A model generated the notes under the pieces. The model was not told the origin of the DNA. It was given only the letters and a program-made list of their open reading frames with translations, and did no database searches. This document shows, in pieces, positions 1 through 49,059 of a stretch of DNA of 64,000 nucleotides. Source of the stretch: Fistulifera solaris (lineage: Eukaryota). The position numbers were made by a program, and so were the translations under genes. Location of the stretch: assembly GCA_030295235.1 (NCBI GenBank), contig AP026123.1, positions 1,178,001 to 1,242,000 on the forward strand. Direction: 5' to 3'. Numbering within the stretch: position 1 is the stretch's first letter; every line of letters starts with the position of its first letter.

Positions 1-226
1 TTTAGTCACTACGAAGGCTGTCGTAAACCTACATTATAAGCTATAGTCGCTTCGTAGTTATCTTGGCGTGGATCGCTCTAACCTTATCGGACGAAACTCA
101 AACCCACACACACACAAAATAATAAGGACGAAATAATAAAAAGCGGTGCACGACACAACACAATTTTTCTTGTTGTTGTTGCTCTCATTATATTTTCTTA
201 GAAGCTCCTATTGCTTTCATTCCAGA

Positions 227-1000
227 ATGAGTACCTACAGAGCGAAGATTATTCTGCTGGGAGATTCTCTGACGCAAACATCTTTCGAAGGATGGGGCGG
301 TCATTTAGCGAATGTCTATCAGCGACGAGCGGATGTCATCAACCGCGGCTTTTCCGGTTACAACACGAACTTCTTTCTCCGCTTGCCCATGGAAGAGTTT
401 CCTTGTGATAACTCGCTCGTTACTATTTTCTTTGGAGCCAACGATGCATCGCTGAAAGATGAAAATCCGCATCATTATGTTTCGCTTGAGGACTATTCGC
501 AAAATCTCAAAACGATCTTGGAGCGTGTACGACAAACGTACCCGCATTGCGGGAACAATATCCTGTTCATAACACCTCCGCCTGTCGTTCATGAGCAACG
601 GTTTCAGTGGCAGAAGGAAAAGTATGGCGACAAGGCGACAGGTGTCTTGGAACGGACATTGGAGAATGCGGGCAAATACGCGGCGGCTTGCAAGAAGGTA
701 GCTGCCGAGGTGGGTTTGCCGTGCTTGGATTTGTACACGACCATGCAACTAGAAAACGAATGGCAGCGTTTCTTCAATGATGGTTTGCATTTCTCGGCCG
801 ACGGACACAAGTTTGTGGGTGATGCTTTGGTGAACGCCATTCAAGAGCACTTTCCGAGTTGGACCGTGCACGCAGATCCATTGACCGGGCAATGGGCCAA
901 CAGTGCTTCGACGTGTGAAGGGTTATCCAGTGGCGGTCCTTTTCACGATGAAATCGATCATTTGGAACCGGAGAAAGCATTTGCGAAGCACTTTAAATAG
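227..1000 (+). CDS. SGNH/GDSL esterase, IAH1 (isoamyl-acetate-hydrolysing esterase)-like
   Basis: Blocks LLGDSLT, NRGFSGYNT, FFGANDA and DGLHFS all present; first ATG at 227. Confidence 0.9.
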   Translation: MSTYRAKIILLGDSLTQTSFEGWGGHLANVYQRRADVINRGFSGYNTNFFLRLPMEEFPCDNSLVTIFFGANDASLKDENPHHYVSLEDYSQNLKTILERVRQTYPHCGNNILFITPPPVVHEQRFQWQKEKYGDKATGVLERTLENAGKYAAACKKVAAEVGLPCLDLYTTMQLENEWQRFFNDGLHFSADGHKFVGDALVNAIQEHFPSWTVHADPLTGQWANSASTCEGLSSGGPFHDEIDHLEPEKAFAKHFK

Positions 1001-1209
1001 GCTTAAGACGGCGAAAACATGTTTACACTATCTATCACATTCTAGGGCAAATGCTGGAAGGTTCCTTGATTCAGAAGAGGCCTAGGAGCAATCAGATAGC
1101 ATCAAATGCTCCAGAGCCAAAAAACAGAACGATCTTTTCAGAACGACTAAAAGGACAAATGAATTTCGTTCTCTTTCCTCTGTTTCGCTCTCCATTACGA
1201 AATACTTGA

Positions 1210-1985
1210 TCAGCGTTCCTTGAGCGGCGCAGATTATAAATGACATGCGACCAGGTCGTCCCTTTGCTTCTCTAGTATGCAGAAAACAACTGCTTTTTCA
1301 ACTGATATACTTCTCGGATCGCTCGATAGCCTTCCCATAAATGACAAATGGCATCCTCTTTCGTCGAAACTACTTGAATAACGGTATGTTGCCCGACCAC
1401 TGTAATCGATCCGCCTTATCAATGAAGGACGGCCTGAGTCAGTGGCGGCTAATGTTAAATGCTCGTATGATTCATGAATACGTAAACATGCCCGTCATCC
1501 CTGTCATTCAAGCCGGCGGCTACGCAGAAACTCGAAAAAACCCCGTAGCGAATGAGCTGCCCTGAGATCGGATCTGATTGTTCGTAAGTATTTCACAGTC
1601 CTCAGTGCATCCTAACAAGCCTATCAGAACCGGTGAGTTGGGCAGCGTTTGCTTGGATACGAAAGTAATTTGAGATTCCAGCTGTGAAAAGTCCACGGCA
1701 ATGGACCCATCCCTGGAGAACATCGCTTTAGATACGGCGCTGCTTGTAGAGCTGTCGACCGGATTGGTGCTCACGGCGGCCCGAATTCGCGATGAGAAGT
1801 GATGAGGAGTAAGAATATCGTATCCACTGTCTTCTAGTATCCTCTTATGTGTAGCTTCTAAAACAAAGTTACGGCGGAAACCAAGCCACCGTTGAGTTGT
1901 TGAGGGTCAAGTCGGCGGCGACAAATGCTACCGAGCCAACCCGTCCTGATATGCAGGGATAAACCCCTACTGAAACGATTTTCAT
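1210..1985 (-). pseudogene. Decayed copy of the 20S proteasome beta-6 gene at 44893-45805
   Basis: Fragments VSKAMFSRDGSIAVDFS, KQTLPNSPVLIG, VVFCILEKQ and SAPLKER* match the intact gene; many indels and in-frame stops. Confidence 0.85.
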
Positions 1986-2069
1986 CCGCGGTCTGCGTCA
2001 AGGGCTCTGCTTGACGTCGTCCATTGTGAAAGGTTCCGAAAATTTATAAGCATTTCGGTTTTCCCCTTC

Positions 2070-2385
2070 AAAGGTCGCGTGAATGCACGACAATGAAGGT
2101 GAAAATAATGAGCAAAAAAATCCTGTGCTATGCCCTTGTATTTTGAGCCGAAAAGCACGGTTTGGCCACACTATGCTGTAATAGTATAAAAAAAGCGAGT
2201 GTATGCTTTTAAGTATCATGTCTCTCGTAACGGTACTGAAGATTCGGATCATGTCGCAGTGTGCCTGAAAAATGTCGCTGAGGACGCACGGACAGACTGG
2301 ACCCTCTTGGAGACTCGTGACTCAAAGGAGAAAATGCTTTACAGTGACAGATACTGTAACTTTAAATACACGGGACACGACTTTG
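2070..2385. repeat. ~300-bp promoter-region repeat, copy A
   Basis: Shares blocks AAAAAATCCTGTGCT...GCCGAAAAGCACGGTTTG, GTCGCAGTGTGC, CGGACAGACTGGACCCTCTT and CACGGGACACGA with 11277-11600 (+) and 44465-44810 (-). Confidence 0.9.
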
Positions 2386-2522
2386 TTGAAACAAGGCCAT
2401 CGCGACAATACGTTACAACGCAACAACATTACACCCGCATTATTGTGTTTTGTTCCTTTTAGATTTTATACACTCGTCTGTTCATCATTATTTACTCCAG
2501 GTGCAAACAGTAAAACTGAGCA

Positions 2523-4065
2523 ATGGCACAAGTCGACAAAGGTTCTATGGGACAACAACATGCCGCTGGTCAGGTGGAGGTGATGGAACTGACCGCATCG
2601 AGTCAACAGCAGAGGCAAAAGCATGAAGCTGTGTTACTCGATTTGGCTGCTAAAAAGGTTGCCGCCACGGTAGATGTTCCTACGCTTCCGGAGCAAGTAC
2701 GCGCTACCTTGCGTCAGCTGGGATTGCCGGTTCGTTTGTTTGGTGAAAACTTGGCGAATGTGCGTGACCGTCTGCGAATGGAACTAGCGCGGAGACAAGT
2801 AGGCGCAGAAGAGATTTTGAAACAAGAGGAACAAATCAAAAGGGAGCAATTAGAAGAGGAGGAGGAAGTTACAAAGTATACTCGAGCTACGCCAGCGCTT
2901 ATTGAAGCGAGACAGGCGATGACGGCGTTTTCCGTTGGTCGTGCCGCGAAAAGACTGAATGCCGAGCGTGAACTCCGTTCCTTGGCGTTAATGCAAAGAA
3001 AGCGAAACAAAATCGTGAGCGAGGAAGATGAAAAACAACAAGCGGTAGACGATAGTATCCTATCTCAGCTGGATGCAAAGTGTATAAAATTAAGCAGGCA
3101 ACTTCGACAAGTTGGTTTGTCTGGATCTCAGTACGGAGACAGTCGTGCACTTTCGTCGATTTGTACGCAATCAGTGGCGGGTATACCGCTTGTGGCGACG
3201 GCGAGTTGGTCTGGATCAATACATCTCTGGGATGGGAGATCCTCTGCCATTGAACCCTTGGGGCAAAAGACTTTGTGTCACGAAGACCGTGTAATGGGTA
3301 TCAGCATGATTCCCCTCGATCACGACGACGCGCTGATAGCGACAGCTTCAATCGATATGACTGGTAAATTGTGGAAAATCACAAAATCATATGTAGTTAT
3401 GAACGAAGATGAAGAAGAAAGTGCGGAGAGCAGCGTTTTTAGTATCACTGAAGCTTCACATCTCACAGGTCACGCCGCTCGTTTGTGTAGAACTGCATTC
3501 CATCCAATGAAACGGCACGTGGCCACAACAAGCTTTGATCATACGTGGAGGTTGTGGGATGTAGAGACTGGGAAGAATATCCTCCTTCAAGATGGGCATT
3601 GGAAGGAATGTTACGGCGTCGGATTTCATCCTGACGGTAGCCTGTGTTCGACTTCGGACTTTTCGGGAGTCGTCCACGTGTGGGATCTTCGAACAGGAAA
3701 GTCAATCAAGCACTTTATGGGACATGCGAAACGGGTACTCAATACTGAATTTCACCCAAACGGGTTCCAGTTGGCCACATCTGGTGACGATGGCACTATC
3801 AAAATCTGGGATTTGCGCAAAAGGAAGATGACTGCCAACATACCTGCACACTCTAATTTGATCACCAACACTCGTTTTGATGCAACAGGAGAATACATGG
3901 TGTCCTCCTCTTTCGATGGAACAGTTTGTCTTTTGGGGGGCGAGGGATTGGAAAATGCTGAACCGATTGCATGGCCATGATGGAAAAGTCAGTGGTGCTG
4001 ACATACTAGAGGATCACTCTATTATATCTTGCGGTTTTGACAAGACTTTGAAATTATGGAGCTAA
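2523..4065 (+). CDS. PRPF4: U4/U6 snRNP protein Prp4 (PRP4 motif + WD40 repeats)
   Basis: VRATLRQLGLPVRLFGE...RDRL PRP4/SFM motif followed by WD40 repeats. Last repeat (LHGHDGKV...DKTLKLW) lies in another frame after the TTTTGGGGGG run at ~3931-3940. Confidence 0.9.
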
Positions 4066-4535
4066 TTAATTACAGAAAAGTAGTGCGTCTGTGTCGGAAG
4101 CACGTAAAATGTAATATTCAAACTTCTTAGTATTTTACTACGAGCTATAGAAAGAATGGGCACCTAAAGCGTTATTTTTCGTCACAATCATTCACGACAA
4201 CAACATGGATGAAGTCTCAAACGTGGCTTGAAAGATTATCTTTGCTTCTTAGACCTGAAAGTCGGGAGTATTTATTTATACAAAAGAAAACTACCATCAT
4301 AGATCGTTTCCGGGACTGGAATATTATTGATTCACAAGAAAAATAATATACACTTCCAACGATAGTCCATGCCCGACCTGCCTCGACCAAGGTAACACGG
4401 AGTATAAAAAAAGGACGATGATGATTATTATTTCACAATAACAAAAGGCGGGCCTATATGATCATATATTGATGAAAGCGTTCATATCGCTTCATTCGCA
4501 AAGCCTTAATATTATGATTGCAATTGACCTTCAAA

Positions 4536-6212
4536 ATGGAGCCCGCCTCGTCGTTACGCGCACAGCCACAAGTAAGGGAGCAAGAAAGCACGGTAATGCT
4601 GCGCGGTAGAGAAAAGCGTCGACACCTTGCGGCTTCAGCAATCGACTTGCGAGACCCATTTGAACTTATTTCGTTGGCTGTTCGTTTCGATGAAAGCACT
4701 GAAAACGAGTCTCTTCTAAGGACGCCGCTGGAAAGAGGAAGTTTTTACGATACGCAACAATTTGTTGAGGTTCTCGAGTTCTTGCGAGAGCAAACGAAGC
4801 CCCATTCAAAAAGGACACAACAATCACCGTTTCTCGAGAAGAATCGGCTTCTTGCAGTAACGCCGATAATTTTGTCGGGTGTGTTATCCACTATTCAGAG
4901 TCAGCGCGAGCTGTCTGATAAATGTCCTTATTCGATGAGTCTTTCATCGGAGCTTGTCACGGCATGCCAAACCATGCGACACGCAGCGTTATCAAGATTG
5001 CGTACGAAAAAGCAAAGAGGACGTACGCAGCGAGTGATTATCCCATTTTTCTGTGTTACTGTTCTCATCTCCATTTACGTGGGAAGCTTGCTAGAAATGA
5101 AAGAGCTCGTATCAAAGTTGGGTTTTGTTGATTCGTGCATGGAGGCCGGGCTGAACGCTGAGAATGCTACGAACGAACACTACCATAAAGTCTGTCGCAT
5201 CTCTGACGCGTATCTTTGGGATCAGTACAAAGCCTACTCGTTGAAACTTGAGGGGTCGTGCTCTATCGGGAAGCATCTATGCTATCACAACTTGTTACGC
5301 GACCGTTATCGAGAAGCTCCATTTTCGATGCATGCCTCCCTTTCACAAGAATTGATTACGTTGGAAGAGATGGAATCAAGTTCGTTTTCAGAACTTATTG
5401 CAGGATCAAGTAAAAGGACTAGGACAAAAGAAAAAACAGACATTTCGTGGTTGGGTGACACAAACGTAAACAGAGCGCTGGCTGAAGCACTTCGAGAATA
5501 TTTACCTGCTAATACACATCTTTCTGTTCTGGATGTCGGTTGTGGCGTCGGTGGTACTCTGTATCCTCTCCTTTCCACTTATGCATCAACTGCTGAAACG
5601 AACAGAAACTTTCGCTATCACGGAATGTCTCTGAGTGGGGCAGAAATCAATTTCGCACGGCGCTTAGCCTCATACCATGACATTACAGCCGATGTGGCAG
5701 TTTTTGAGAAAAAGAATTATGACGCCCCTTTACCTTCCGCTACTTTCACGGCCGTTCTGGCTGTTGAGTCCCTCTCGTACAGTCCGGATATCAAAGCAAC
5801 GCTGTCAAATCTGCTAAAGTCAGTACAAAGAGGGGGACTTTTGATTATAGTTGATAAGGTGATTGCTGCAAAAGCTCAACAATCATCAGCGGGTGCTGAT
5901 CCGCAGTTTCAAATATCGTCTATCTCGCATACTCAATGGATGACAGCAATAAAACATATTGGGTGTCAGCTCGAGCTCGCCCGCGACCTTAGCTTAGAAT
6001 ACGAAGTATTGTCGAACGAGCGTTTTGATCAGTTTTCCGTGTATTGGCACTACCGGATTCCGTTCTTGTGGGCATCGAAGAGCTCAGCAGGTCGTCGTGT
6101 CGTGGAGTTGACAGAGGATCTTGTTACTGTTGTTAGAGAAAAGGCACAGAGACGTGAAGCTTTTCGGACGGCTGGTGCTACATACAACATGTACATATGT
6201 CGCAAGTTGTAA
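4536..6212 (+). CDS. Membrane-anchored SAM-dependent methyltransferase
   Basis: Hydrophobic helix VIIPFFCVTVLISIYVGSLL; class I MTase motifs VLDVGCGVGG, AVESLSY and GGLLIIVD. Confidence 0.75.
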   Translation: MEPASSLRAQPQVREQESTVMLRGREKRRHLAASAIDLRDPFELISLAVRFDESTENESLLRTPLERGSFYDTQQFVEVLEFLREQTKPHSKRTQQSPFLEKNRLLAVTPIILSGVLSTIQSQRELSDKCPYSMSLSSELVTACQTMRHAALSRLRTKKQRGRTQRVIIPFFCVTVLISIYVGSLLEMKELVSKLGFVDSCMEAGLNAENATNEHYHKVCRISDAYLWDQYKAYSLKLEGSCSIGKHLCYHNLLRDRYREAPFSMHASLSQELITLEEMESSSFSELIAGSSKRTRTKEKTDISWLGDTNVNRALAEALREYLPANTHLSVLDVGCGVGGTLYPLLSTYASTAETNRNFRYHGMSLSGAEINFARRLASYHDITADVAVFEKKNYDAPLPSATFTAVLAVESLSYSPDIKATLSNLLKSVQRGGLLIIVDKVIAAKAQQSSAGADPQFQISSISHTQWMTAIKHIGCQLELARDLSLEYEVLSNERFDQFSVYWHYRIPFLWASKSSAGRRVVELTEDLVTVVREKAQRREAFRTAGATYNMYICRKL

Positions 6213-6898
6213 TTCAAAGGTGATTTTGATAATTGCTTTGGCCTGACTTGCGACGAACTCGACTATCTGCCTTACAGCGGCGGAAGTATGTTGTGATAAG
6301 ATTCCGCGCCGATCCGGCTCTTTGAGTTCAACCAAACTTTAGCGTGCAACAAATTGGCGTCCTCACAAAGTTTGGTGTTGACGTTCATTCACAAAGTAGC
6401 CTCTTAAAGCAGCAAATGATGAGAACATTTTAGTAGCAACGAGAGCGACAAAAGTATGACCTGGTGTTACTTGAAAATACTGGTGTATTATTTCGAAACT
6501 ACATTGTAAATTATAACAAGCCATTTGCCCTTGACAACTTTTATAAAGTCTTTTGAGAAACAACAGAATATTGTTTCCTATTCACCCGTGCAAGCGATTG
6601 CGTGTTGACGGTTCAATTGCATCTAGCTATTTTATCCAAAGACCAAAAGACTGTTAGAAGGGTGATTGAAACTCAGTCGTGAAGAAAATTGCTTACATTT
6701 TTCGCCATAGTGGAATAATCGCATCACAAAAACTTCGTGAACACAAGAAGTGCTGGCTTCGCCGTAAAGATGATTGAGAAGCAAAGATCATCAAAGATGT
6801 TGGATATGAAGTAATGTCATTATTTCTTTGTTGACTTCACGAGTCACTTTGTTACGTATTAGAGTGTTTTGGAAAGATTTTTTAGTAACTGATTCGCC

Positions 6899-8067
6899 AT
6901 GGTGTGCAAGGCGATTCTTTGTCGATTGGCGCTGCTTCTGTTTACCTTTTCGGGCGTGAAATCGCAATTATTCGATCCTCCCACTCTTGGAAGAATATCG
7001 AATAATTATTTTGGATCTAGAACTTCCTATGCAGTCAAACCCCAGCCCTCGCGGCAACAATCAAATCCAAGGCATGGAAAACCTGTCGCCACGGATCAAA
7101 TTGGCGACCAAGAAACGAGGGACATGATCAACTCTTTTTGGCTAGAGAATCGAGAAATTCGTTCATTGGTAAGATTTTGTACTCCAATCCGCAACGCTTG
7201 TTCCAACTCTCACTCGTGTATATCGTGAATCATGTAAAGCTAAGGTATACGGGATATTGGCAGCTCAACTCATCTTCACGGCTTTATCGGTAACAGTATT
7301 CGGAACAAATCCAGCGATAAAGCGATGGATTCTCGGTTCCGGACTCGGCATCTACGCCCCGTTGGTGTGTGCACTAATCTCTCTCTGTACGGTACTGGTC
7401 ATGACCTTTAGCACCCATGCAAGACGGTCCTCGCCGCTCAAATATAACCTTCTTGCTCTCTTCACTTTTGGAGAAGCAATAAGCGTCGGGTTTGTGACAA
7501 GTTTCTACAAATTTCGTTCGGTAGTGACGGCTATGCTTGCAACGGCGCTTGCGACAACTGCTATCTCTGTTTACACTGTCAGGCAAAAGAATCCTAGATA
7601 TGATTTGACACAATGGGGGCCGCATTGTCATCGTAAGTATCACGGATCTTTTCGATTCTGCAGAGTACCCTTGTTCTTCTGCACTCAAACATCCTTTGAA
7701 GTTGTGGTTTGGTATTTGTTACTCTTTCTTTTGTCAAGCTATTGCAGAGTTTTGGTACCATTCCTACTATTATCCCGTTAAACGATTCCTTGTTTGCTTT
7801 TCTGGGAGCGTGCATGTTTTCATTTTACCTTGCACACGACACCAGGCTCATCGTCGCCGGAAAGCATAGCAAGTATCGGATGAATAATGAGGACTATGTT
7901 TTCGGTGCGAGTAAGTGACCAAACGATGTATGGCAACTTTAGTCATGCATTTCTTCCAGCTTCAACTCACAATATTTGTGTCCTTGACAGTGACTCTGTA
8001 CATGGATATCATATCCTTATTTTTGCAACTCCTGGACCTTCTAGCGGATAAAGACAACAAAAAGTGA
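6899..8067 (+). CDS. Bax inhibitor-1/LFG (TMBIM) family membrane protein, multi-exon
   Basis: VYGILAAQLIFT, PLKYNLLALFT, FSFYLAHDT...EDYVFGA-TLYMDIISLFLQLL. Introns ~7169-7244, ~7633-7700 and ~7910-7990. Confidence 0.85.
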
Positions 8068-8818
8068 CCAAGAAGAAGTCGTCATTGATACGATTTGACG
8101 CTCGAGCTTGAATTCATGTAAGCCGGACTGTCATTGAGCTAAAGGAAGTTGATAAAGAAAGTATGATATGGAGGTAACGAAGTATTTTTGGATTGAAGTT
8201 CGTCCTGCTGCTGCTCATCGTTATTTTTTGTGAGTTTGTGAGTACCGGTACCTGGTAACCAGAGTAACCTTAACCGAATCCTGGTGCGAGGCAGTGCCCG
8301 TTTGGTTCCGAGTTCCAAGTGCCGATACGGTATTGGTGATGTTTGTGTCATGTGTAAAGTACAGTGCGGCGAGCGGCGTTTGGGATTGCGTGTACAGCTT
8401 TACGCAGTGTGATAAAGTGCGTTTAGTGTCCAATGACTCAGTCCCGGAGTCCTCGTGAAAGTTTCTATAAAGTTGGAAGTAGAGATTAACGTTTTGCTAT
8501 AAATATTGTTTAAATAAAAATAGTCTTCGTCGTACCGTCTTTACTATTATGCACCTTTATAATTTCTTCATTCCCAGTCCATTTTTTCAGCATTGTCCAT
8601 CCGAAATGGTGCAATAAATCCAAAAACTCCTGTGGCCCCGGACTTCGCACCTCGCCTTGTAAGCTTCGATATTTCGAAAAAACCGGCATTAGCTAGACGA
8701 AAAAGGAGCAAGTAGATGGTCAAGGAACCACATTTCCTATGACAAGGGCAACAGTTTTACCAATCTTAAAGTGTAACTGCGTCCTTATTGTCTTTGCTCG
8801 AGATTAGTTCAATTGCAG

Positions 8819-10392
8819 ATGAATTTTTCGAGCGGAGGGAGGGGAGAGCAAGGAGGAAGAGGTCCTATTCCGAGGCTATCCTCTGGCGAGCAGTCGTCAC
8901 CGGAGGAGTCGTCCCCTAACAAAGCCATCAAACCAAAATTCACGAGGGACAGTAGAATCAGTCCGTCAAAATCGTTTCAGAAGAGGATATCACAAAGAGA
9001 AGGCGAGCCTATCGGCACAAAGTTTCGAAGCGATGAAGCTATCTCTTCTTCTTCCTCGAAAGAAGATGTACATTCCTTGGCAGTTGAAAACGACACGAAG
9101 CCCCTTATTTCGTCTCGGTTAAGAAAAGCTTCTATTGGATCAAAGTCTGATGTCTCGCGTACTTTTGCGACTTTGGATGACAAGGATTCACGGTTTGCTG
9201 GTTCTAGATCAAAAGACTTTTCGCCAGATCATGATATAATACCAGTGTCACGGTCCAATCGAACAAGCGAAGACACGAAAAGGACCCACTATCGATTCAC
9301 TGCCCCACAAAGACGAACACGTTCGCTGGATGGTGCAGACATTGACGAGATAATAAGTCGTGAGATTCTATCTCCAATGGCAAGAAGGACAAAAGTGAAG
9401 ACGATGTTGTCGATAACGCACGACGGCCCGTGAGAATCACTGGGAGGAGACGGTCATCGACAGGTGAGAGCCCAGAAAGAAGAATACCGTCGAGGTCATT
9501 TCGAACTTTGGTTCGGCGAGATCTTGTGTCTTCAAATGATTTTGTAAAGGAGAGAGAGCGTTTTGCTGGTTCTGAAAGAACAAATGATGAGGAAGGTCGT
9601 CGATCGAGTTTTTCGAGTCCAGCACGAAGTGCAACAGGTAACTCGGTCGCAAGGATGCTTCGCAGTTCCAGCACTGGTGAGTTTTCAGGTGGTTCGCTTA
9701 TTGGTGGAGACGCCTCTTCGGTCGGTTTAAACCAGCGGGGAGAACGCGATGTGCCATTAGTTGACACTATTCCTAGTGCTTTGCGGACTCCGGAGAAAAG
9801 ATACCGACGACAGCGAGTTGCATTACCAGCGTTTCTATTTGATCCAGTTTCTGACAAATCGCCTGGGGCTAAAACTCCTTTTTCGACAAAATTAATGGAG
9901 AGTACAAGCTCGGACTCCAGTGAGCAACGTCTCGCACGAAACAAAGAAGGTGTTGATGTTCGTTTTCAAGCAAATTTGCCTTCGTGCCCATCTGTTTCAA
10001 CGTTTCTTGCTGATTCATGCGTGGTCTTATTTGACGGGGCACCTAACTTGCCGCAGAGAACTGTTGATGACCTTGAAGCTGGTGGGCTGGAACCTCCGAG
10101 AGAAGACGAATCAAAGTCAAAGTCGGAGGCGCCATTGTCATTCATCTCGTTTTTCTTGAACGAAGAAAACGATGAAAGGAGTTCAATCACTGTCGAATCT
10201 TTAGAGGATGACAATAAATCGGTCAGCTCCTATTGTCCCTCCATAGCAGACTGCATTTCGACTGGTACCTCAATGGCAGACGAAGCCCCAAAAATGCCTG
10301 GACGCGGGGTTTCGCAGCTCAGCATGGAAAGTGGAAATGCACTAGGTGAGATGGACGACGATAAGTCCGCTTATGAGTCGCTGAATGAATAA
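8819..10392 (+). CDS. Ser/Arg-rich low-complexity hypothetical protein
   Basis: Two long adjacent ORFs of similar composition joinable by a 1-nt frameshift near 9390-9430; no recognisable domain. Confidence 0.55.
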
Positions 10393-10535
10393 AAAATTTT
10401 GGATTCAAAATGAAAACTACGCGAGTTACGTACTGCCCTTAATGCTTATTGTCCGGTCGCTTTGGAAAACAATCTTAAATACTTTCATTGGTATCATGAT
10501 GGCGGATGGTCTATGCCCCCAAGAAAGCAACATCG

Positions 10536-11146
10536 TTACCAGTTGTATTGCCATTTGCTTGTATCGCCTCCGAGACGTTGCTGTATGTGTGACGCAGATT
10601 CTGTCGCTTCGACTCGCGTCAATGAATCCTTGTGCAATCTATCCTGGTCTTTGACAGCTTGTAAAACTGAATGAATATTGGTTTCTAGCACCATACCACC
10701 CATCACAATTTCATCTAACACATAGTGAACCTGCAAGGAGATAAAAAAAGTGAGAAGATTTTAATGGATACGCCGAATGACTAATCTTTATCACGTACTC
10801 TGTCAGAGTGAAAAATCAAATCGAGCTCGCAAACTGACTCGAAGCACCGATCTAAGGACTCCACAAAGACTTGAATAAGATCCAAAATTCCTAGGTCGGA
10901 CTCTTGACTATCAACGGCAAATACAAAGAAAAGTGTTGCGTAATGGCGGTAGATCAATTTGATGTTGTCTCCCCATTCTGGAATGGCTCCTTCCAAATAA
11001 TTGCAAAATGAATCTGGTCTTGCAGCGACCTGTTGAAAGACTCTACGAATAACACTCTGTTGTAAAGATTCAGACTCGACCGACTGGTAAAACTTTACAA
11101 GACGAGGCTTGCCATGATTGTTGACTATTATTATTCCCTTGATCAT
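10536..11146 (-). CDS. AP3S: AP-3 adaptor complex sigma subunit
   Basis: MIKGIIIVNNHGKPRL, YRHYATLFF, LDLIQVFVE, VCELDLIFH, VHYVLDEIVMGGMVLETN; GT-AG intron 10731-10798. Confidence 0.93.
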
Positions 11147-11276
11147 GGTGTCGTCTCTCCTGTCTCTGTATCACGCTTGAGCGGCTTTTATTTACTCAGT
11201 AATGTGTTACGAACAATCAAAGGATTCTCTTTGTTGTTACGATTCCAAGAAAGATTGAAAAGAGATCGCTTATTAG

Positions 11277-11600
11277 CTTCAAAGGTTTCTAAATGGCACA
11301 AAGATGAAGGTGAACAGCAATGGGCAAAAAATCCTGTGCTATTATGCCCTTGTGTATTTTGGGCCGAAAAGCACGGTTTGCACACACTACGTCTTAAGTG
11401 TACTAAAAAGTTAGAGTGAGATTTGAGTTGTGTCTATATCGGAACGGTAATCCTAAATAAAGCTTTTGTCGCAGTGTGCATTTCAAATGTCGCAGGGGAT
11501 GTACGGACAGACTGGACCCTCTTTAGACTCGTGATCCAGAGACAGATAAGTTGGACAGTAACGTAAACTGTGGTATCCAAATACACGGGACACGATTTTT
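11277..11600. repeat. ~300-bp promoter-region repeat, copy B (direct relative to copy A)
   Basis: Same conserved blocks in the same order as 2070-2385. Confidence 0.9.
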
Positions 11601-12172
11601 TCTTTACACACCAGACGCTATTCCTTGCATGCTGCTAAGAATATGATCCAAGTAAAGTCAGTGTATACACGCTGGTAACTCCTGATAATGAACCTAGTGA
11701 GCATGAACCCATACTTTGGCCTGCGACGAATGGTAGTCGCGGCGAAGGCAGCTGACACTGCGGGTGTGAACCTGGTAATGGAAGAGGGGCGACTAAAACT
11801 TCTATTGTTCTTCAGAATAATCAAAACTATGCTTACAAGGTCCTGTAATTTTCTCAACGCCTACTTGGCTTAAAACTAACCATTTTCACAAGCAAAAAAT
11901 TCATCCCATTGCGACTCTTTGCTAGTAAGTTGTTCAACTTCGTACATCTCTATGGTCGTTGATAGCGCATCTTGTACATATCTACTCCGTCGCACATCAA
12001 ATCAAATCATTGTCCGGATGACGATCTTGGTTGCTCTGTCTCAATTAGAGTCCAAGCACTGATAATCCAGTTTGGGTGGTGGGAAAGGGAAATGGAGGAT
12101 GAGCGTTCACAGTCAACGAGCGCTATCATTTTGTCATGCGAAACAGCCCCTATCCAATAAATGTTATGTAAA

Positions 12173-13219
12173 TCAATCAACTTTGAATTCTTGAAGTGCC
12201 TTGAAATACTCTTCGTCGATCTTGCCTTCGCCGTCCTCTCCGTCTTCAGGATCATATGTTACTCTGGGTTGATATGCTGGATAGTCTCGCCAGCTCATAG
12301 CATCCTCGACTCGCGCTTCATTCCAGGGTATGGATACTAAAATGTCTCGAAGACTCCGTTCGACAATGTCAAGACAAAAAACTGCTTCATATGGTTCCAG
12401 TACTCCCAGCATGAATTGCAGCTCGTCCAGTGCCTCTTGGGCATCCGCCAACGCCCCACAATGTCTCCACGCGCAGGATCCCCAATCAAAGCCTACGATA
12501 CCTTCCCCTGATTCTCGAATTAATGGCGCATCGATCGATCGTCGCAGGAAGCTAGCGGCCGGTTCCAGCTGAGTCAATGGCTCGGAGACAAGTTGAAGGC
12601 GAACCGATTCCCATTGGTAGTCGTCTGCCAAGCCTTTTAATCTCGTCACACACTTCAAACATTCTAGCACAGTGCTGATTGCCTGTTGTTGATCCATCGC
12701 TGTTGATACACTGCCTCGCCACCGACGAACTCTCTCTTGTCGATGCGTCAACATAACTTCGTTGTAAGAAAGAATTCGATCATTGAGCTCATCTGGGTGA
12801 CGGAGACCTTCGCGTTCTTCGCGTCCGAAGCCCAGTCCATGAATGGTATGCGCCCCGAAAGTTTGTTCCCATTCTTGCGATGTTCTCTGTCTAGATGGTA
12901 AGACATTTGTGCAGAGCACATCTTCCCAGGAAATGAATAATAAAGCCAGCAATGTAGATTGGAGTATAAACAATGGCAACGGCGCGATGAATTTGACCCG
13001 GTGAATGAACTTGGAAGTCTCCGGAGCAGTTCGTCCAGTTACCTGGGGTGATCGTTCTTCGGTAAACGAAGATTTTGAGAAATACATAGATCGTATTTTT
13101 CTTCGCAATTGCGGAGACGCCAACGTGAGGCCCCATTGAAATGATGCTTCGACCGAGGGAACTGTTGATGATAGCAGCGTTGCGCTTACACTACAACACA
13201 GCACTTGACTCATCCGCAT
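12173..13219 (-). CDS. Hypothetical protein, probable plastid-targeted
   Basis: 348-aa ORF; N-terminal hydrophobic stretch ending VEA-SF followed by a basic, Ser-rich segment. Confidence 0.65.
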   Translation of the reverse strand: MRMSQVLCCSVSATLLSSTVPSVEASFQWGLTLASPQLRRKIRSMYFSKSSFTEERSPQVTGRTAPETSKFIHRVKFIAPLPLFILQSTLLALLFISWEDVLCTNVLPSRQRTSQEWEQTFGAHTIHGLGFGREEREGLRHPDELNDRILSYNEVMLTHRQERVRRWRGSVSTAMDQQQAISTVLECLKCVTRLKGLADDYQWESVRLQLVSEPLTQLEPAASFLRRSIDAPLIRESGEGIVGFDWGSCAWRHCGALADAQEALDELQFMLGVLEPYEAVFCLDIVERSLRDILVSIPWNEARVEDAMSWRDYPAYQPRVTYDPEDGEDGEGKIDEEYFKALQEFKVD

Positions 13220-13628
13220 CTTCGGGCAATCAATGAACCTAACCAGAGTTAATGTCGGTGGCAGTGCTCATTAAATACTGCATGGTAAATGACGACTGAG
13301 ATACGGAATGATAAAAGAAATGCAGCAAAGTTTTTTTGTCATCCGCGCAGCATGCATTTCTCCAATGGGGTTAGAGGTTGGAGGTCCGAGTCGTCGTCGT
13401 AGGTCTGCAGGAATCTGGAATCTTGATCGCTGAAACTATCGGGAGAGAAACGACACTACTTCCTTTAAGATAGTCGCACCTCCCCCCTCAACCTCAACGG
13501 ATTGAAACGTAGCAGGCGAACAACACGAGCACTTGCATTTGTTATGTTCATTGTCATCTTGCATCTATCTATTGATTCCAGTTCTCCCTTTCCATTTTGT
13601 AAAAAGCTATCACCTGATACAGAGAAGC

Positions 13629-20034: not shown

Positions 20035-20525
20035 GATGAAGAGTTACAGTCAACGTGTGTCTCGGCAAGAGAATTGCATTAGGGTGTCATCAAACAAATC
20101 GCAAAATGATGCTGTCGTTGAAAAACAGCCAACACCTACTTCCACGGGACACGTTCGTGACTCGTGACTCGGATTCGGATGGGGAGGTTTATTTCACTCA
20201 CTCTGCACTATCACCTATGAAGTAGTATTCCAAAGACTATACACATATCTAAAAATATTGTATTTTCCGTTGTTGATATTTTTAGAAGGCACTTCGAATG
20301 ATGTTATGTATGTGGTGAGTGGTGTGTGGTGAGTGGTGAGTGCCGAAAGGCGATGATACAAGAAAGTAGTACCTGGTACGGCAACCATTGTTTTTACGGC
20401 GTGCAACCAAGAGATAAGCGTGCAATGGGAAAGAAAACCGAATGAATGCAATCTGACATCAGACGTCTGGAATACTTTGCGATTAAACGCAAGCAATCTT
20501 TTTTACCATTTCATTGCTTATCGCA

Positions 20526-29329: not shown

Positions 29330-29930
29330 GAGATGTTGGTAAGAGTTTTGTTGACACGCCGAAATGAAAATTATTAAAATGGTAAAGTAGTTGTGGTCGA
29401 CTCTAGAAAATACCCGGCCCCCCTACGTTGACAAATTGCTTATGGTGCCTACGTAAAATTCTCGGAGACGTTCGAAGCTTTGGAACTCTTGACCTCCCCC
29501 TTGTTTTAAGTTAACGTTGATAATTGTGATTTGGGACAAGTAAAAATTGGATACTTAGCTGGAAGTTAAATTATCCGTTTGAGCATTCCCGAAAACAGGT
29601 GCAGTTACGATTGTGAAATATCCGGGCACCCCCTCCGTCGATAAATTTCCCTACGAGGCCGACGTGGTTTTCTACGTAGATCCTGGAAGCACTGCATCAC
29701 ACCTGTCTTCTGGTTAATCAATTCTAAAATGGGTGTGAAATATTGGCTGAAAGCACGATTATGACATGTTGGTATTAGTTCCGATGAAATTTCGTTGCAA
29801 ACCCACCCGAAAATGGGTGCGGAAATTAAATTGTAATGTCCGGAAACCCCTAGTCTACATCGATAAATTTCCTAAGGCGCCTACGTGAATTTCTCGTAGA
29901 CATTCGAAGCGTTGCAACTCTTGTGCTTCA
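29330..29930. repeat. Degenerate tandem array (~3 units, ~210-225 bp) of the satellite family also at 33457-34190 (inverted)
   Basis: Cores at ~29410, ~29618 and ~29838 (ATCCGGG..CCCTCCGTCGATAAATTTCCCTACG.GGCC.ACGTGG) match the reverse complement of the 33.5-34.2 kb units. Confidence 0.85.
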
Positions 29931-30009: not shown

Positions 30010-30875
30010 TACAATGATAGATCTAAAGCTGATTATGCTCTCACGACCTTGGAATTGCGATCAGCCGGCAATTTGTCTTCGAGTCCTGACCCTCATGTTT
30101 TTACTATCATCCAAACAGTTGGTTGCACCAATCCACGACTGGATTTCAGCCATGAGACTGCATCGATCCTTTTGTCCATGCAGCCTGCAGCGCGAATTTT
30201 TTATCTTTTTCGCGTTTGATTATAGTTTCATTACAATAATAGATCTAAAGCATGCTCTCACCTTAGAATTTCGCGCAATTGCGATTTCAGCCGGCAATTT
30301 GTCTTCGAGTCCTGACCCTCATGTTTTACTATCATCCAAACAGTTGCTTGCACCAATCCACGACTGGATTTCAGCCATGAGACTGCATCGATCCTTTTGT
30401 CCATGCAGCCTGCAGCGCGAATTTTTTATCTTTTTCGCGTTTGATTATAGTTTCATTACAATAATAGACCTAAAGCATGCTCTCACCTTAGAATTTCGCG
30501 CAATTGCGATTTCAGCCGGCAATTTGTCTTCGAGTCCTGACCCTCATGTTTTACTATCATCCAAACAGTTGCTTGCACCAATCCACGACTGGATTTCAGC
30601 CATGAGACTGCATCGATCCTTTTGTCCATGCAGCCTGCAGCGCGAATTTTTTATCTTTTTCGCGTTTGATTATAGTTTCATTACAATAATAGATCTAAAG
30701 CATGCTCTCACCTTAGAATTTCGCGCAATTGCGATTTCAGCCGGCAATTTGTCTTCGAGTCCTGACCCTCATGTTTTACTATCATCCAAACAGTTGCTTG
30801 CACCAATCCACGACTGGATTTCAGCCATGAGACTGGATCGATCCTTTTGTCCATGCAGCCTACAGCACGAATTCT
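30010..30875. repeat. Near-perfect 225-bp tandem repeat, ~3.8 copies
   Basis: CCGGCAATTTGTCTTCGAGTCCTGACCC recurs at 30065, 30291, 30516 and 30741. Confidence 0.97.
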
Positions 30876-44810: not shown

Positions 44811-44892
44811 AAGGGAAATAACGAACTTCATCCCATTTTCGAAGCAATTCACAGTAAAAGAAGCCAAACAGAGTCTTTGTCGAAGACCGCGC

Positions 44893-45877: not shown

Positions 45878-48304
45878 TCAATCAAACTTTTTGGCTTTGG
45901 CTACTTCTCGTGCAGCATCCAACGCTACTTGATCGTTCCTAGGTCTCTTCTGAATTAAGGAACCTTCCAGCATTTGCCCTGGGATGTGATATAATATGTC
46001 GTGTCGTCTCTTGACACCCTCGCATTCCAGCGGAGTAGCAGATGACTGCGGCAAGGGGACGCTAGGGAAACGAGAGTTATCATAATGTGGCACAGCCTCA
46101 CTGTAAGGGCCGAAAAGCTTTTCCCGCATCTCCTTTTCTTTTAATGCAGTCTCCGCTACAATTCTACCAGAATGAACCATTTTGCGAAAGAAATCACTTT
46201 CTAACATTGAATCAAAGTCCGGAACACAAGGCTTCCGGCAATCACCCCGTTCGATTCGATCAAGAAGTTCGTCCTTTGTTTCATACCACGAATGGACCCA
46301 TAAAATGTCGACGAGTTTCATCCAAGGCCCAAGGAACACCAACGCTAATAGTCGGATGATCCAAAGTACAAGCGTATTGAAAGGGAAAATCAACCACAGT
46401 GTAGCTAACATGAAGCAGTTAGTGGTCACTACATCGGTGGCGTAGCTTTCCCAGTTGATAAAATTTCGAATCAAGCGGCTGGTTTGGCAGAGAGATTTGA
46501 CCGCAGTATGCAAATAGGTCAAACGGTTCGCCACAAACCTTTTGATGATTCGAAAATCTATCTTGCTTGCAGTATCAGTTGTCATATCAAAGCTTGATAG
46601 ATTTGTTTTGCTGTATATCCTGTGGACTTTGAGAGCGAAGCGGAACAGAACCGTGATGAGCTTCATCATCCGCTCTGTCTTCATGGCATCGAGCTGCTCC
46701 AGTTTATCATCTTCCTCAACGCCTTGGTTTGGTTCGATCGTAACTGGATTAAAATGTGATCGACCTGAAAGGGCCATCATATTGACTTCTTCGCTTTTCT
46801 TGACTTGTTTCCAAGGAGAGGGATGCCGACTCAAATGGTAGTTTATTGAAAGCAATATCCAGGATATACCGTAAAGATAGATCGGAATCACAAGATCTGG
46901 GCGCTCAATCAAAAGCAAAGAACCAGCAAACAATACAACCGAGTGGAGCGGGAACCATACCGATCGCCCTTTACCGTATTTAAGTCGACCTCTCCACAAA
47001 AAGATCTCGAAAAAGACATCAAGAACGTAGCAGAGATTCTTTCGGTAGGAAAGAAGCTCTCTCAAATAAAGTTTGAGAGTATCTATTGTCACTTCATCCA
47101 TGTCCATAGATCCCCTCGTGATGTATTTGAGAACACGATACGACTTCTCATTGTCGACATTAATGACACAACGAGGAGCTGTCGCAAACGTCAGTTGCAT
47201 GGCCTCACTTTCATCTTCCCATTCGACTCGTAGACGAATGCATATGGTACCTCTAGGCTCCGCATCTATTTGATCCGGATCGTGATGGAGCTTGTAGTGT
47301 AGGATATACTCTGTGTTGTTGCGAAAGAAGGAGGTATTGATCACAACACGGCCGATTGGATCATGGTGATCCGTCAGAACATCATCGTAGTCGAAAACGC
47401 CCAACATAAGGAGCGATGTGGGATGTCGCACCTTAAACATAAATGCTCGGTTTGTCCAAGGAAGCCAGTGAGGATTCAGCGAGTTCCAGATTATGTTCGT
47501 CCGTACCATAGCATCCTCAAAGACAATTCCGACGAAAGGATCCGAAACAAAACTCGACTGAGCAAGGTCCATATTGGGCAAGCCGTGGCAGCTCAAAACT
47601 TCTAAATAAATCGTTCCGAGCCTACCATGACCCACACTTATCCAATTGTGGCTGGGTTTCATCGTTTCTGTCTCTATTTGCTCTTTCATGAGCCACTGGG
47701 TCTCCTGTCGTGGTCGACTCGGATCCGGACCTGGCCTGACCAGAAAGTACTCTTTATCCTCGATGAATTTGCGATGACGACGAAAGCGTCCATTGTAAGC
47801 AACGGTACGAAAATTGATGTCGGAAGCCAGACCTTCTATATCCACATGTTTCGTTCGCTCAAAGAACAAGATGTCGTCTTCCGTGGCAGGTCGAGAGCGG
47901 AACGCGAGGTACGCATGATTTTCGGTTGGTGACAAAATCATTCTCTCTTGCCTCTCTCCCCGACCATTCAAGAGTTCTTCAAACATTAATTCCACCTTTC
48001 CCACAGTGATGAATCGATAATGAAGGGATATAGACACTTCACTGGTCGTATGCTTTCTCAAAGCTGTCTCTACGGGTATCTTTAAAGGACACAGAGATCC
48101 TGTCAAGACCGTCCATATAGGGCTGTCATCGTCATGAACGACTTTCGTGCGATGGACTTCCGTGTCATTGATTTTGACGACACAGTACAGGTCCATTACT
48201 CTCCGAAAACCCATTGCTCCCACAATTTCCAAGAGGACAGGGGTCGTTTGCGTCTCAAACACCTTGCCCGAGAGGCGCTCTTCGTTGCAACAACACCGAA
48301 ACAT
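45878..48304 (-). CDS. Multi-C2-domain membrane protein (MCTP-like)
   Basis: Two C2-like domains (DLYCVVKI...RTKVV..DDSPIW; LEVLSCHGLPNMD..SDPFV...NSLNPHW...GVFDYD..HDPIGRV) followed by TM segments. Confidence 0.8.
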   Translation of the reverse strand: MFRCCCNEERLSGKVFETQTTPVLLEIVGAMGFRRVMDLYCVVKINDTEVHRTKVVHDDDSPIWTVLTGSLCPLKIPVETALRKHTTSEVSISLHYRFITVGKVELMFEELLNGRGERQERMILSPTENHAYLAFRSRPATEDDILFFERTKHVDIEGLASDINFRTVAYNGRFRRHRKFIEDKEYFLVRPGPDPSRPRQETQWLMKEQIETETMKPSHNWISVGHGRLGTIYLEVLSCHGLPNMDLAQSSFVSDPFVGIVFEDAMVRTNIIWNSLNPHWLPWTNRAFMFKVRHPTSLLMLGVFDYDDVLTDHHDPIGRVVINTSFFRNNTEYILHYKLHHDPDQIDAEPRGTICIRLRVEWEDESEAMQLTFATAPRCVINVDNEKSYRVLKYITRGSMDMDEVTIDTLKLYLRELLSYRKNLCYVLDVFFEIFLWRGRLKYGKGRSVWFPLHSVVLFAGSLLLIERPDLVIPIYLYGISWILLSINYHLSRHPSPWKQVKKSEEVNMMALSGRSHFNPVTIEPNQGVEEDDKLEQLDAMKTERMMKLITVLFRFALKVHRIYSKTNLSSFDMTTDTASKIDFRIIKRFVANRLTYLHTAVKSLCQTSRLIRNFINWESYATDVVTTNCFMLATLWLIFPFNTLVLWIIRLLALVFLGPWMKLVDILWVHSWYETKDELLDRIERGDCRKPCVPDFDSMLESDFFRKMVHSGRIVAETALKEKEMREKLFGPYSEAVPHYDNSRFPSVPLPQSSATPLECEGVKRRHDILYHIPGQMLEGSLIQKRPRNDQVALDAAREVAKAKKFD

Positions 48305-49059
48305 CGTTTTGTCAATTTTTGTTTCACTCTTTTATTCAGCACACGTTCCTTTTTTTGTTATATGAGCCAAAACGATAGGGATAGTTGGAAGTTAGACACT
48401 TCTTCCATAGGTTTCTTCTTTCGAAATCAATACCATAGGAAACGGAAGGTGTGCAGAATTCCTCTGACATGAACGAGAGAGGAAAAGAATGAAAATGCGG
48501 AAGATGAGGTGCAAAAGTTGACATCGCCGTCGTCCAATAACTGGAAATCGCCATTACTACACTAACGTACATAGTGTAAGATAGAGCGGTTTTGAGCCGA
48601 CTATGCGGCACGAAGTACTTCATCGCCAAAAGCTGGAGGCGACTTCAAATAATATAACTCATCACTTTTCGAAATGAAACTCCCTCGTTGCGACTTCGTC
48701 AAAAAGCAGTAAACATCCCTCTAAGGTCTCTAGATAGAAGAACAACGCACGCTGTTTCACATAAAAGATTATGAATGTAAGGTTTATGTCGCATACAGAA
48801 AAAACAGGAGGAAGTCGCCTCAATAATGCATGCGTTCGACGCCTGTTTCTGGTTCATAGCGCATCTAATGAAATCGTGATGCTGATGCAATAGTAGATGA
48901 GAGTTGCGATGAAAAATTGTGGCAATTTCACCCAGCGTAGACTGCAATCAGAGATGGTGTTCAATCCGCGGCCCGAAAAATTCAACGGGCACATTTCTTT
49001 GGTTCAATTCTCCTTCTTACTCGTTAACACAACCCAGAAAGAACTCAATGAACTTGCTT

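Follow-up and report, generated by a model that had tools for sequence, protein, structure and literature searches.

Two copies of a non-coding element, called P here, lie as direct repeats on the two sides of a nine-kb gene block, and a third copy lies farther along the same DNA between two other genes. Did the block enter this locus as an insert, or is it resident DNA that two repeat copies flank? The original prediction favored the former, taking P as a ~300-bp bidirectional promoter present three times with different partner genes, and the block as a circle that integrated at P into a copy of the proteasome beta6-P-MYND locus. In the whole stretch of 64 kb analyzed here (the window), P is best read as a dispersed, promoter-proximal repeat family, accompanied by an old segmental duplication that ends at P's end, which is ordinary in kind. 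Because P is dispersed and its copy A arrived with a dead beta6 duplicate, the nine-kb block between copies A and B is most likely ordinary DNA rather than an inserted circle.

P measures ~320 bp (family range about 260-330 bp). Three copies were found in the window by blastn with Smith-Waterman limits, and an nhmmer profile of P detected no copy beyond A, B and C in the 64 kb at E<0.1.

2066-2384/2387, + strand: P copy A (blastn, Smith-Waterman, nhmmer).
2066-2128, 2129-2176, 2177-2221 and 2222-2249: P-left, block 1, spacer and block 2 of copy A.
2250-2322, 2323-2340 and 2341-2387: core (73 nt), spacer and hairpin-to-end in the right half of copy A.
11277-11599, + strand: P copy B (blastn, Smith-Waterman, nhmmer), spanned by single contigs (X1 11102-12779, X2 11119-12248).
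44460-44765/44813, - strand: P copy C (blastn, nhmmer), taking up most of the 560 bp that separate the head-to-head genes beta6 and MYND.

All three predicted copies are real. A and B are indeed direct repeats, both on the + strand and 9.2 kb apart, with C inverted. Pairwise identity within P is 246/322 (76%) for A-C, 218/314 (69%) for A-B and 225/320 (70%) for B-C, and amid this overall 69-76% the boxes are >90% identical. The three-way alignment, which had been proposed as a check, contains 192 invariant columns. An invariant 21-mer of P is present 3 times where 0.01 would be expected, and the expectation for a 24-mer of block 1, likewise present 3 times, is 0.00. The limits of block 1 and the core were set independently, as the points where other genomic contigs begin or cease to match. 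The right ends of the copies coincide (A 2384/2387, B 11599, C 44460/44463).

No meaningful Pfam match came from seven ORFs that overlap or adjoin the P copies. When the core was translated across 60 aa, the product matched none of the proteins of 33-105 residues it was compared with, and no candidate shared three common 5-residue words with it. The invariant 21-mer of the core had 0 matches in public metagenome, viral and genome contig collections. A 22-mer of block 1 did match two metagenome contigs (L001, L002) that represent one bacterial sequence; the match is 23 nt within a phage-type integrase gene, the similarity extends no further, and it was taken as chance.

Contigs of four sequencing runs were compared with the window. 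Of these, X1 is a metagenome, and X2, catalogued as possible RNA, was treated as genomic DNA, since 92% of the words are present in it, intergenic ones included. The contigs of X3 and X4 behave like transcripts: they alone show a GT..AG splice (7910->7991), and X3 has a loose end in poly-A at 8197. The genes around the P copies are the following.

140..1000, + strand: GDSL-type lipase/acylhydrolase gene (Pfam PF13472, E=8e-24; X3 and X4 RNA-type contigs over 169-994).
2523-3980, + strand: PRP4 gene, for the U4/U6 snRNP WD40 protein (Pfam PRP4 PF08799, WD40).
4536..6212, + strand: class I SAM methyltransferase-domain gene (Pfam Methyltransf_12/23/31/25/11).
6893..8197, + strand: Bax-inhibitor-1 family gene (Pfam PF01027; intron 7911-7990; poly(A) site near 8197).
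8777..10392, + strand: serine-rich ORFs with no recognised domain (ORF list; Pfam 0 families; RNA-type contigs over 9127-9689 and 10003-10267).
10781-11146, - strand: first exon (121 aa) of the AP-3 sigma subunit gene, AP3S (Pfam PF01217, E=5e-34; top PDB matches AP-3 sigma-1, E=2e-47).
12173-13267, - strand: gene without Pfam family, its 3' end toward P copy B (ORF list; Pfam 0 families).
43196-44332, - strand: MYND zinc-finger protein gene, right-hand partner of P copy C (Pfam PF01753, E=7e-7).
44893-45768, + strand: intact proteasome beta6 (PSMB1-type) gene (Pfam PF00227; top PDB matches proteasome beta type-1/beta6, E=3e-27).
45878..48331, - strand: C2-domain gene (Pfam PF00168; tblastn).

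At 3931 one letter is absent from all X2, X3 and X4 contigs, so an assembly indel of 1 nt has probably altered where the PRP4 ORF ends. A single gene interrupted by an indel or an intron may account for the serine-rich ORFs. Over the gene at 12173-13267 there is an X3 RNA-type contig (12076-12727) that runs on towards 11984.

The junctions are spanned by independent contigs with 0-1 mismatches: beta6 pseudogene/P-A by 781-2302, P-A/PRP4 by 2279-3227, and AP3S/P-B/next gene by 11102-12779. The layout is therefore not a mis-assembly, although one of the runs may be the window's own source. Contigs 82-93% alike also run along the whole stretch and may belong to a second subgenome or haplotype. 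One X2 contig of this class (1296 nt) joins 11205 to 11832 with undefined letters between. Separately, an X1 contig with a depth of 8.62 joins B's 11491 to A's 2281.

Each copy lies 80-136 nt from a start codon. The PRP4 ATG is 136 nt to the right of A and the AP3S ATG 131 nt to the left of B, and the equivalent flanks of C are 80 nt (beta6) and 128 nt (MYND). As predicted, A sits between a beta6 pseudogene and PRP4, and C between the intact beta6 and MYND genes. The ATGs of the latter pair are 560 bp apart, within the ~1 kb usual for divergent gene pairs; A has the same arrangement formally, with one partner dead, and B does not have it. The MYND remnant proposed as B's second partner is absent, as tblastn with the MYND protein gave no match in 11600-14000 at E<=10 and blastn gave nothing beyond 11599. 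Since the DNA to the right of B is the 3' end of the minus-strand gene, B has only one partner gene, AP3S. Thus, the claim that PRP4 and AP3S read outward from P stands as geometry, and the promoter part of it is putative. X3 and X4 have no cover over 1801-2700 and 11251-11700; being assembled contigs, they are uninformative on transcription starts or P transcription.

A-C homology does not stop at ~300 bp but continues unbroken, from 1032 (possibly about 1006) to 2387, against 45992-44460 (blastn, sliding identity). The C locus was duplicated over 1.36-1.4 kb (C2-gene tail, beta6 and P), and copy A forms one end of the resulting segment, which is inverted relative to that locus and lies 42 kb away from it. 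Remnants of two genes lie in the duplicate.

1006..1110, + strand: C2-domain gene 3'-end remnant, left end of the duplicate (tblastn 982-1110, E=7e-11, internal stop).
1262-1985, - strand: beta6 pseudogene (tblastn with intact beta6, 40% identity over 254 aa, stops, 59 gap positions).

At the left end, homology is solid from 1032 (blastn pairs 1033-1420 with 45991-45592), with a weak tblastn trace from 982. The last ~110 nt of the C2 gene are present as a copy at 1006-1110, and the stop codon of the GDSL gene adjoins this junction. The beta6 copy shifts frame directly after the ATG, is interrupted by several in-frame stops and has lost stretches of ~40 and ~62 nt. Its divergence from the intact gene by codon position is 0.19/0.16/0.29. 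Divergence between A and C is ~30% in each neutral-type class, that is, beta6 third positions (70/239), 3'UTR/intergenic DNA (43/144) and 5'UTR (24/77).

A retrocopy origin of the pseudogene was rejected because the left junction has no processed-pseudogene tail (1000-1035). The copy also extends >400 nt into non-coding DNA upstream and takes in a piece of the neighboring gene. As the parent ORF is continuous, intron loss is uninformative here.

P is not limited to three copies, either. Its boxes recur at many other genomic places, as seen at 80% likeness in the contigs of X1 and X2. Summed depth in the bin 2251-2700 is 208.8 (X1) and 282.2 (X2), while most other bins have ~25 and ~40. On the right side of the core, at least 33 loose-ended contigs in X1 (6+10+11+6) and at least 19 in X2 (7+7+5) match 2250-2322 and are unlike the window thereafter. 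On the left side there are at least 11 in X1 and at least 16 in X2. The 30-nt consensus of the loose ends resembles the P flanks by eye, with CGGTACT before the core, and ACAGT and CCCGGGAC motifs behind it. Seven joints lead from 2129-2173 into 2249-2273 and skip 78-142 nt, so the distance between block 1 and the core differs in copies elsewhere. Within the core, the contigs of the window itself are broken in both runs (X1 781-2302 / 2279-3227; X2 1707-2302).

From the excess depth multiplied by 450, and divided by 73 nt and the single-copy depth, a copy number of ~75 (X2) to ~113 (X1) is suggested, which is very rough as summed contig depth is not copy number. P thus has many dispersed copies with unrelated flanks, as interspersed repeats do, by counts from contig ends and depth. 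Hundreds of dispersed copies of an ordinary SINE or MITE had been named as the outcome that would speak against the original prediction. The roughly 75-115 copies come close to this outcome, but no SINE/MITE hallmarks were found, as detailed below. Three copies in 64 kb exceed the chance expectation for ~100 copies in ~50 Mb (size from X2, 51.6 million contig letters), and some local process may therefore tie B to A or C.

We conclude, with somewhat more confidence than doubt, that P is a short interspersed family of tens to about a hundred copies near gene starts, that copy A came by duplication, and that copy B is a separate member. In such a family, the copies would share conserved boxes with variable spacers between them. 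An old DNA-level duplication would have brought 1.36-1.4 kb of locus C (the C2 gene's last ~110 nt, the whole beta6 gene and P), inverted, into the short GDSL-PRP4 gap, after which the beta6 copy decayed. B, lying upstream of AP-3 sigma, would belong to the family independently of this event and be roughly as old. The intervening 9.2 kb would then be ordinary resident gene DNA, and the direct-repeat bracket a by-product.

The duplication ends at most ~3 nt from where B ceases to resemble A and C, so its probable trigger was the homology of P-C to another P copy at PRP4. That copy would have been at PRP4 before the duplication, judging from the coinciding ends only. Break repair or template switching, primed at P, may have run on into beta6; alternatively, P's own mobility could have carried the flank along.

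The duplicated pair allows the pace of change within P to be compared with that of its flank. In the core and block 1, A and C differ at 11/121 sites (9%), against 137/460 (30%) at the neutral-type sites (Fisher p = 1e-6). With the same benchmark, A and B differ at 24/120 sites (p = 0.04), and B and C at 22/120 (p = 0.01). In the less conserved parts of P, the three pairs differ by 26-30% (29/110, 33/110, 30/111), equal to the neutral 137/460. Box evolution is thus about three times slower than that of neutral DNA in the duplicated pair. The two main boxes are therefore taken as putative protein-binding sites within promoters of the flanking genes. The predicted selection on conserved blocks holds up statistically for the A-C pair, with gene conversion as an alternative; the slow divergence of the boxes fits constraint or conversion.

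P could instead be a decayed non-autonomous mobile element with no host role, its boxes kept alike via master copies or conversion and its siting at gene starts reflecting an insertion preference. We regard this as unlikely, though worth serious attention. The multi-copy family with variable spacers and internally shortened members would be expected of such an element, as would the lack of coding capacity, of RNA family matches and of covariation. The spacers have diverged by 31/63 (49%), above the 30% neutral benchmark, fitting patchy conversion or unequal ages within P. However, A and C arose by segmental duplication and not by separate insertions, so the boxes should have decayed like the flank (30%), whereas they differ by 9%. 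The A-specific and C-specific branches are also equal in length (29 vs 26 sites).

Structural hallmarks of such elements are not found, either. There are no terminal inverted repeats, as the first 80 nt compared with the reverse complement of the last 80 give 8 nt in A and 8 nt with a mismatch in B. Target-site duplication is limited to 5-6-nt matches near the P ends, none of them at both limits, with the ends known to a few nt. No A- or T-tract lies at either P limit or at the left junction of the duplicate, and no tRNA head was detected (ARAGORN, 0 genes).

A bolder reading is that P is a genome-wide promoter cassette, with about a hundred copies near genes; purifying selection would maintain the core and the ~45-nt block 1 at each site as binding places for host factors. 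The repeat would also seed ectopic copying, which would have yielded the beta6 pseudogene and PRP4's second-hand promoter. This is doubtful at present. If true, one repeat family would wire many unrelated housekeeping genes to common control and shape segmental duplication in a diatom.

A box cluster at 20143-20180, flanked by genes for an OTU-type deubiquitinase and an F-box protein, was considered as evidence of a ubiquitin-proteasome regulon and dropped because equal density occurred in 48/200 shuffled windows. It has CACGGGACACG with 1 mismatch, and GACTCGTGACTC and GATTCGGAT exactly, in an order different from P, and its colinear similarity to P is not above that of shuffles.

Circle integration at P, the mechanism first proposed, fares poorly. 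It supposes that a circular 9.2-kb DNA (AP3S-P-PRP4...) integrated in a copy of beta6-P(-MYND) by homologous recombination within P. The direct orientation of A and B agrees with it, and PRP4 leaves A's right end and AP3S leaves B's left end as MYND and beta6 do in C. The 26-30% divergence of B from A and C in the less conserved parts is also similar to the 30% of the duplicated flank, so all events of the circle model could share one age. B being about as old as the A-C duplication is likewise what a single complex event would predict. The same circular permutation would also be reached if an ancestral AP3S-P-PRP4 block had been duplicated in tandem and the two copies had then undergone reciprocal losses.

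Several observations oppose the circle. Neither a MYND remnant nor homology to PRP4 or other DNA follows B on its right side; blastn with 1-3000 gives only 11277-11599 there. Integration would leave a mosaic, in which A-left and B-right are near C while A-right and B-left are foreign. But the informative sites of P (A=C 51, B=C 29, A=B 26) show no such crossover, with A=C leading B=C in each third of P (16, 24, 11 over 11, 10, 8). By sub-region, B is never nearer to C than A is, and A is the nearer one in both blocks and in the core. A crossover may have occurred at the outermost right edge of P. P being a multi-copy family, two copies 9 kb apart require no special event. Moreover, the circle needs at least three events (duplication, circle excision, integration), against one plus a resident repeat copy. 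Taken together, these make circle integration improbable.

Least probable is that P or its core is a multi-copy small non-coding RNA gene, such as a polymerase III transcript ending at a T-run (…CACGA TTTT): the sharp right end at the T-run in B and C, the strongly conserved core and the many copies would suit it, but A has only TTT at the putative terminator, Rfam 15 gives 0 matches in the whole window at gathering score and only a chance microRNA match (no tRNA/7SL/5S) within 1950-2550 at E<=10, nothing tRNA-like is detected, and consensus folds of the three copies have a positive (unfavorable) covariation term on both strands, with double changes at 3/61 and 3/57 pairs.

The interspersed family plus duplication makes this locus a cautionary case, as the repeat-block-repeat layout resembles an integration scar and dissolves into a common repeat and a plain segmental duplicate. 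Of modest interest are the slow boxes between copies made by duplication rather than transposition, and the duplication that stops at the repeat end. If both hold genome-wide, they would offer a handle on diatom promoter architecture and bear on repeat-seeded small duplications in compact genomes. To our knowledge, few cis-elements are known in diatom promoters. A limited literature search turned up no such element, and the terms 'transposable', 'MITE', 'SINE' and 'segmental duplication' each occur 0 times in the main text of one preprint (10.1101/2021.11.10.468027).

Among known systems, MITE- and SINE-like families are similar to P in being ~300 bp, non-coding, multi-copy and gene-proximal with internal deletions. 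P differs from them in having no terminal inverted repeats, no tRNA/7SL/5S-like head, no A-rich tail and only unconvincing target-site matches, and in boxes kept beyond neutral expectation between two segmental duplicates.

As in Campbell-type or Crypton-like integration, direct repeats bracket a gene block here. Unlike there, no recombinase is evident in the block (Pfam on the main ORFs gives PRP4/WD40, methyltransferase, Bax1-I and adaptor sigma), and unlike a Campbell-type product there is no crossover mosaic and no resident flank remnant beyond B. Compared with bidirectional promoters, C lies between head-to-head genes and A between the beta6 pseudogene and PRP4, whereas only one flank of B holds a gene start. 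P is also repeated genome-wide, unlike classical bidirectional promoters.

Mobile elements are known to move flanking host DNA, by 3' transduction in the case of retroelements or by Helitron capture. The present case is like these in that an element end bounds a copied host block. It differs from retroelement transduction in that the far junction lacks a poly(A)/poly(T) tract, and from Helitron capture in that no hairpin+CTRR or A|TC…-type termini were recognised by eye at P. The closest likeness is to segmental duplications that leave a unitary pseudogene and a duplicated promoter, as the copy is contiguous, includes parts of two genes with the intergenic DNA, and contains a decayed gene copy. 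Unlike in such duplications, one end of the duplicate here is the end of a dispersed repeat, which suggests repeat-primed copying rather than a random breakpoint.

Three copies of the non-coding element P (A, B and C, each ~320 bp) are present in the window, as the original prediction held. Their limits were set by blastn, Smith-Waterman alignment and an nhmmer profile made from copies A, B and C. At E<0.1 the profile detected no fourth copy across the 64 kb.

P copies and neighbouring genes
140-1000, + strand, GDSL lipase
2066-2387, + strand, P copy A
2523-3980, + strand, PRP4
4536-6212, + strand, methyltransferase
~6893-8197, + strand, Bax-inhibitor-1 gene
8777-10392, + strand, serine-rich ORFs, function not assigned
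10781-11146, - strand, AP-3 sigma (AP3S)
11277-11599, + strand, P copy B
12173-13267, - strand, gene, function not assigned
43196-44332, - strand, MYND protein
44460-44813, - strand, P copy C
44893-45768, + strand, PSMB1/beta6-type proteasome subunit
45878-48331, - strand, C2-domain gene

Copies A and B are direct repeats with 9.2 kb between them, and C is in inverted orientation. Identity over aligned positions is 246/322 for A-C, 218/314 for A-B and 225/320 for B-C, with 192 columns invariant across the three. A 21-mer is common to all three without change (0.01 matches expected by chance), and a 24-mer of P has 3 matches against 0.00 expected, so the likeness of the copies is far above chance level. 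Conservation is arranged in blocks, namely block 1 (2129-2176), block 2 (2222-2249), a core (2250-2322) and a terminal box (CACGGGACACGA), and the spacers between them are nearly saturated with differences.

The predicted gene names were upheld by Pfam and PDB sequence searches. At copy C, P is separated by 80 nt on its left from the beta6 start and by 128 nt on its right from the MYND start. The right end of A is 136 nt from the PRP4 start, and the left end of B is 131 nt from the AP3S start. As geometry, then, the claim of outward reading from P is correct for both PRP4 and AP3S.

The assembly was compared over 1-13500 with contigs of four public runs aligned at 80% likeness. X1 is a DNA metagenome that contains 94% of the sampled words, and X2 is an isolate-labelled run of 51.6 million contig letters that contains 92%, intergenic words included. 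X3 and X4 are RNA-like, with a GT..AG joint (7910->7991) absent from X1 and X2, and X3 has a loose end with poly-A at 8197. All junctions of interest are spanned with 0-1 mismatches (contigs 781-2302, 2279-3227, 11102-12779 and 11119-12248); therefore, the layout around A and B is not a mis-assembly. Covering contigs carry single-base indels relative to the window at 3931 (one letter absent in X2, X3 and X4), 7134 (an additional T in all four runs), 7614 (an additional G in X1-X3) and 13482. Assembly indels, rather than true frameshifts, therefore probably account for the unusual PRP4 ORF terminus and for the break-up of the Bax-inhibitor ORFs. Separately, a second contig set, 82-93% identical to the window, runs along all of 1-13500 in X1 and X2, the two DNA-type runs, and the RNA-type runs represent the GDSL gene solely by this variant, with 67 differences over 826 nt. 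This points to a genome present as two diverged copies (subgenomes or haplotypes) and to biased expression.

The homology of A and C exceeds P, extending unbroken from 1032 (possibly ~1006) to 2387 against 45992 to 44460. This duplicate retains what is left of the C2 gene's final ~110 nt (tblastn E=7e-11, stop inside), together with a beta6 copy that carries a frameshift directly after ATG, several stops, and deletions of ~40 and 62 nt. No T- or A-tract is found at the far junction of the segment, so it is a DNA-level copy rather than a retrocopy. Relative to intact beta6, the copy has diverged by 19%, 16% and 29% at codon positions 1, 2 and 3, and the untranslated parts of the duplicate by 30-31%. 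Third positions and untranslated parts together served as the local neutral benchmark (137 differences at 460 sites). Within the pseudogene, a 58-nt patch (1685-1742 against 45138-45195) is 95% identical in surroundings of ~72-79%; it falls in a lineage-specific beta6 insertion of ~50 aa where solved beta6 structures do not align, and could stem from gene conversion or from an embedded element.

Against this benchmark the boxes have evolved slowly. Core and block 1, delimited independently by the match limits of other genomic copies in the contigs, differ between A and C at 11/121 sites (Fisher p = 1e-6). The same boxes differ at 24/120 sites for A-B (p = 0.04) and at 22/120 for B-C (p = 0.01). 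Since A and C arose by duplication, the argument from a conserved master copy does not apply to this pair, and changes specific to A and to C are equal (29 vs 26) despite the dead left-hand gene of A. The predicted selection on conserved blocks thus gains statistical backing for A-C; the slow boxes fit purifying selection at both sites, and gene conversion among family members would fit too. The spacers, with 31/63 sites different, exceed the benchmark, and either uncertain alignment or patchy conversion may be the cause.

P belongs to a multi-copy family. The core of A draws many foreign contigs, with a summed depth of 208.8 (X1) and 282.2 (X2) in bin 2251-2700 and of ~25 and ~40 in most other bins. 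Among the loose ends listed, at least 33 contigs in X1 and at least 19 in X2 match as far as 2308-2324 and then diverge, and at least 11 and 16, respectively, begin their match on the left at 2250-2282. The window's own contigs split inside the core in X1 and X2, as a repeated word would predict. The short loose-end consensus resembles, by eye, P's own flanks, so that family likeness reaches past the core at <80% identity. Seven joints tie 2129-2173 to 2249-2273 with skips of 78-142 nt, so block 1 and core are differently spaced in other members. Excess depth multiplied by 450, divided by 73 nt and by single-copy depth (~20 in X2, ~10 in X1), yields ~75 (X2) and ~113 (X1) core copies; because summed contig depth is no true copy number, we give the family size only roughly, as tens to about a hundred. 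This size comes close to the hundreds of dispersed copies that the original prediction regarded as contrary to it.

The predicted observation is real except for one part, the MYND remnant beside B. The MYND protein has no match at E<=10 in 11600-14000, and no similarity continues past 11599 by blastn at word size 7. In an RNA-type contig, the minus-strand gene at 12173-13267 stretches its 3′ end toward B. Therefore, copy B has a gene start on one flank only.

This bears on the proposal that the 9-kb block was integrated as a circle by recombination at P in a copied beta6-P-MYND locus, which predicts A and B to be reciprocal mosaics with the resident MYND flank after B. Informative sites in P group A with C 51 times, B with C 29 times and A with B 26 times. 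A=C leads B=C in each third of P (16, 24 and 11 ahead of 11, 10 and 8), and in sub-region comparison B is nowhere closer to C than A is. With this lead, the missing remnant and the abundant family, nothing requires circle integration; it is unsupported, and would be viable only with a crossover at the extreme end of P and a resident duplicate ending there by chance.

On the right, similarity stops at the same place, within ~3 nt, for A-C, A-B and B-C (2384/2387, 11599 and 44460/44463; blastn and Smith-Waterman). If P truly ends there, the segmental duplication would have halted exactly at the repeat end. By the simplest route, copying would have been primed by homology between P at C and a P copy pre-existing ahead of PRP4; synthesis would then have passed through beta6 into the C2 tail, to be joined beside the GDSL stop codon. 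Where P is less conserved, each of the three pairs differs by 26-30%, equal to the neutral benchmark, so B is about as old as the duplication. Such an age fits a burst of family spread, and a single complex event predicts it as well.

P matches no Rfam family, and has no tRNA-like fold, no covariation support in consensus folds of either strand and no coding signal. Neither terminal inverted repeats nor a clear target-site duplication was found at P. Block 1 of copy B is matched exactly over 23 nt in two metagenome contigs (L001 2035-2057, L002 1436-1458), within a bacterial phage-type integrase gene; no likeness continues past these 23 nt, and the match is ascribed to chance. Three P boxes occur within 38 nt, in altered order, at 20143-20180, in the divergent gap between OTU-type deubiquitinase and F-box genes, with a USP/DUSP deubiquitinase gene just upstream (13993-18908). 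The ubiquitin-proteasome regulon hinted at by this cluster was dropped, as 48/200 shuffles were as dense. Other repeats in the window are a tandem array at 30061-30848 (3-4 units of ~225 nt, 99-100% identity), another at 33441-34186 (4 units of ~216 nt, 65-96% identity) that also matches a 38-68-nt piece at 29588-29655, inverted, and an almost perfect inverted repeat at 50111-50196 (35 nt, spacer 16 nt), rich in G-runs and C-runs (AAAGGGGGTTACTTTTTGGACCCCCC…).

The literature listings and preprint passages retrieved make no mention of an element like P. The history that fits best is one in which an old segmental duplicate ends at one copy of a repeat family that is dispersed and promoter-proximal, a third member lying at AP3S; the P boxes are candidate promoter elements.
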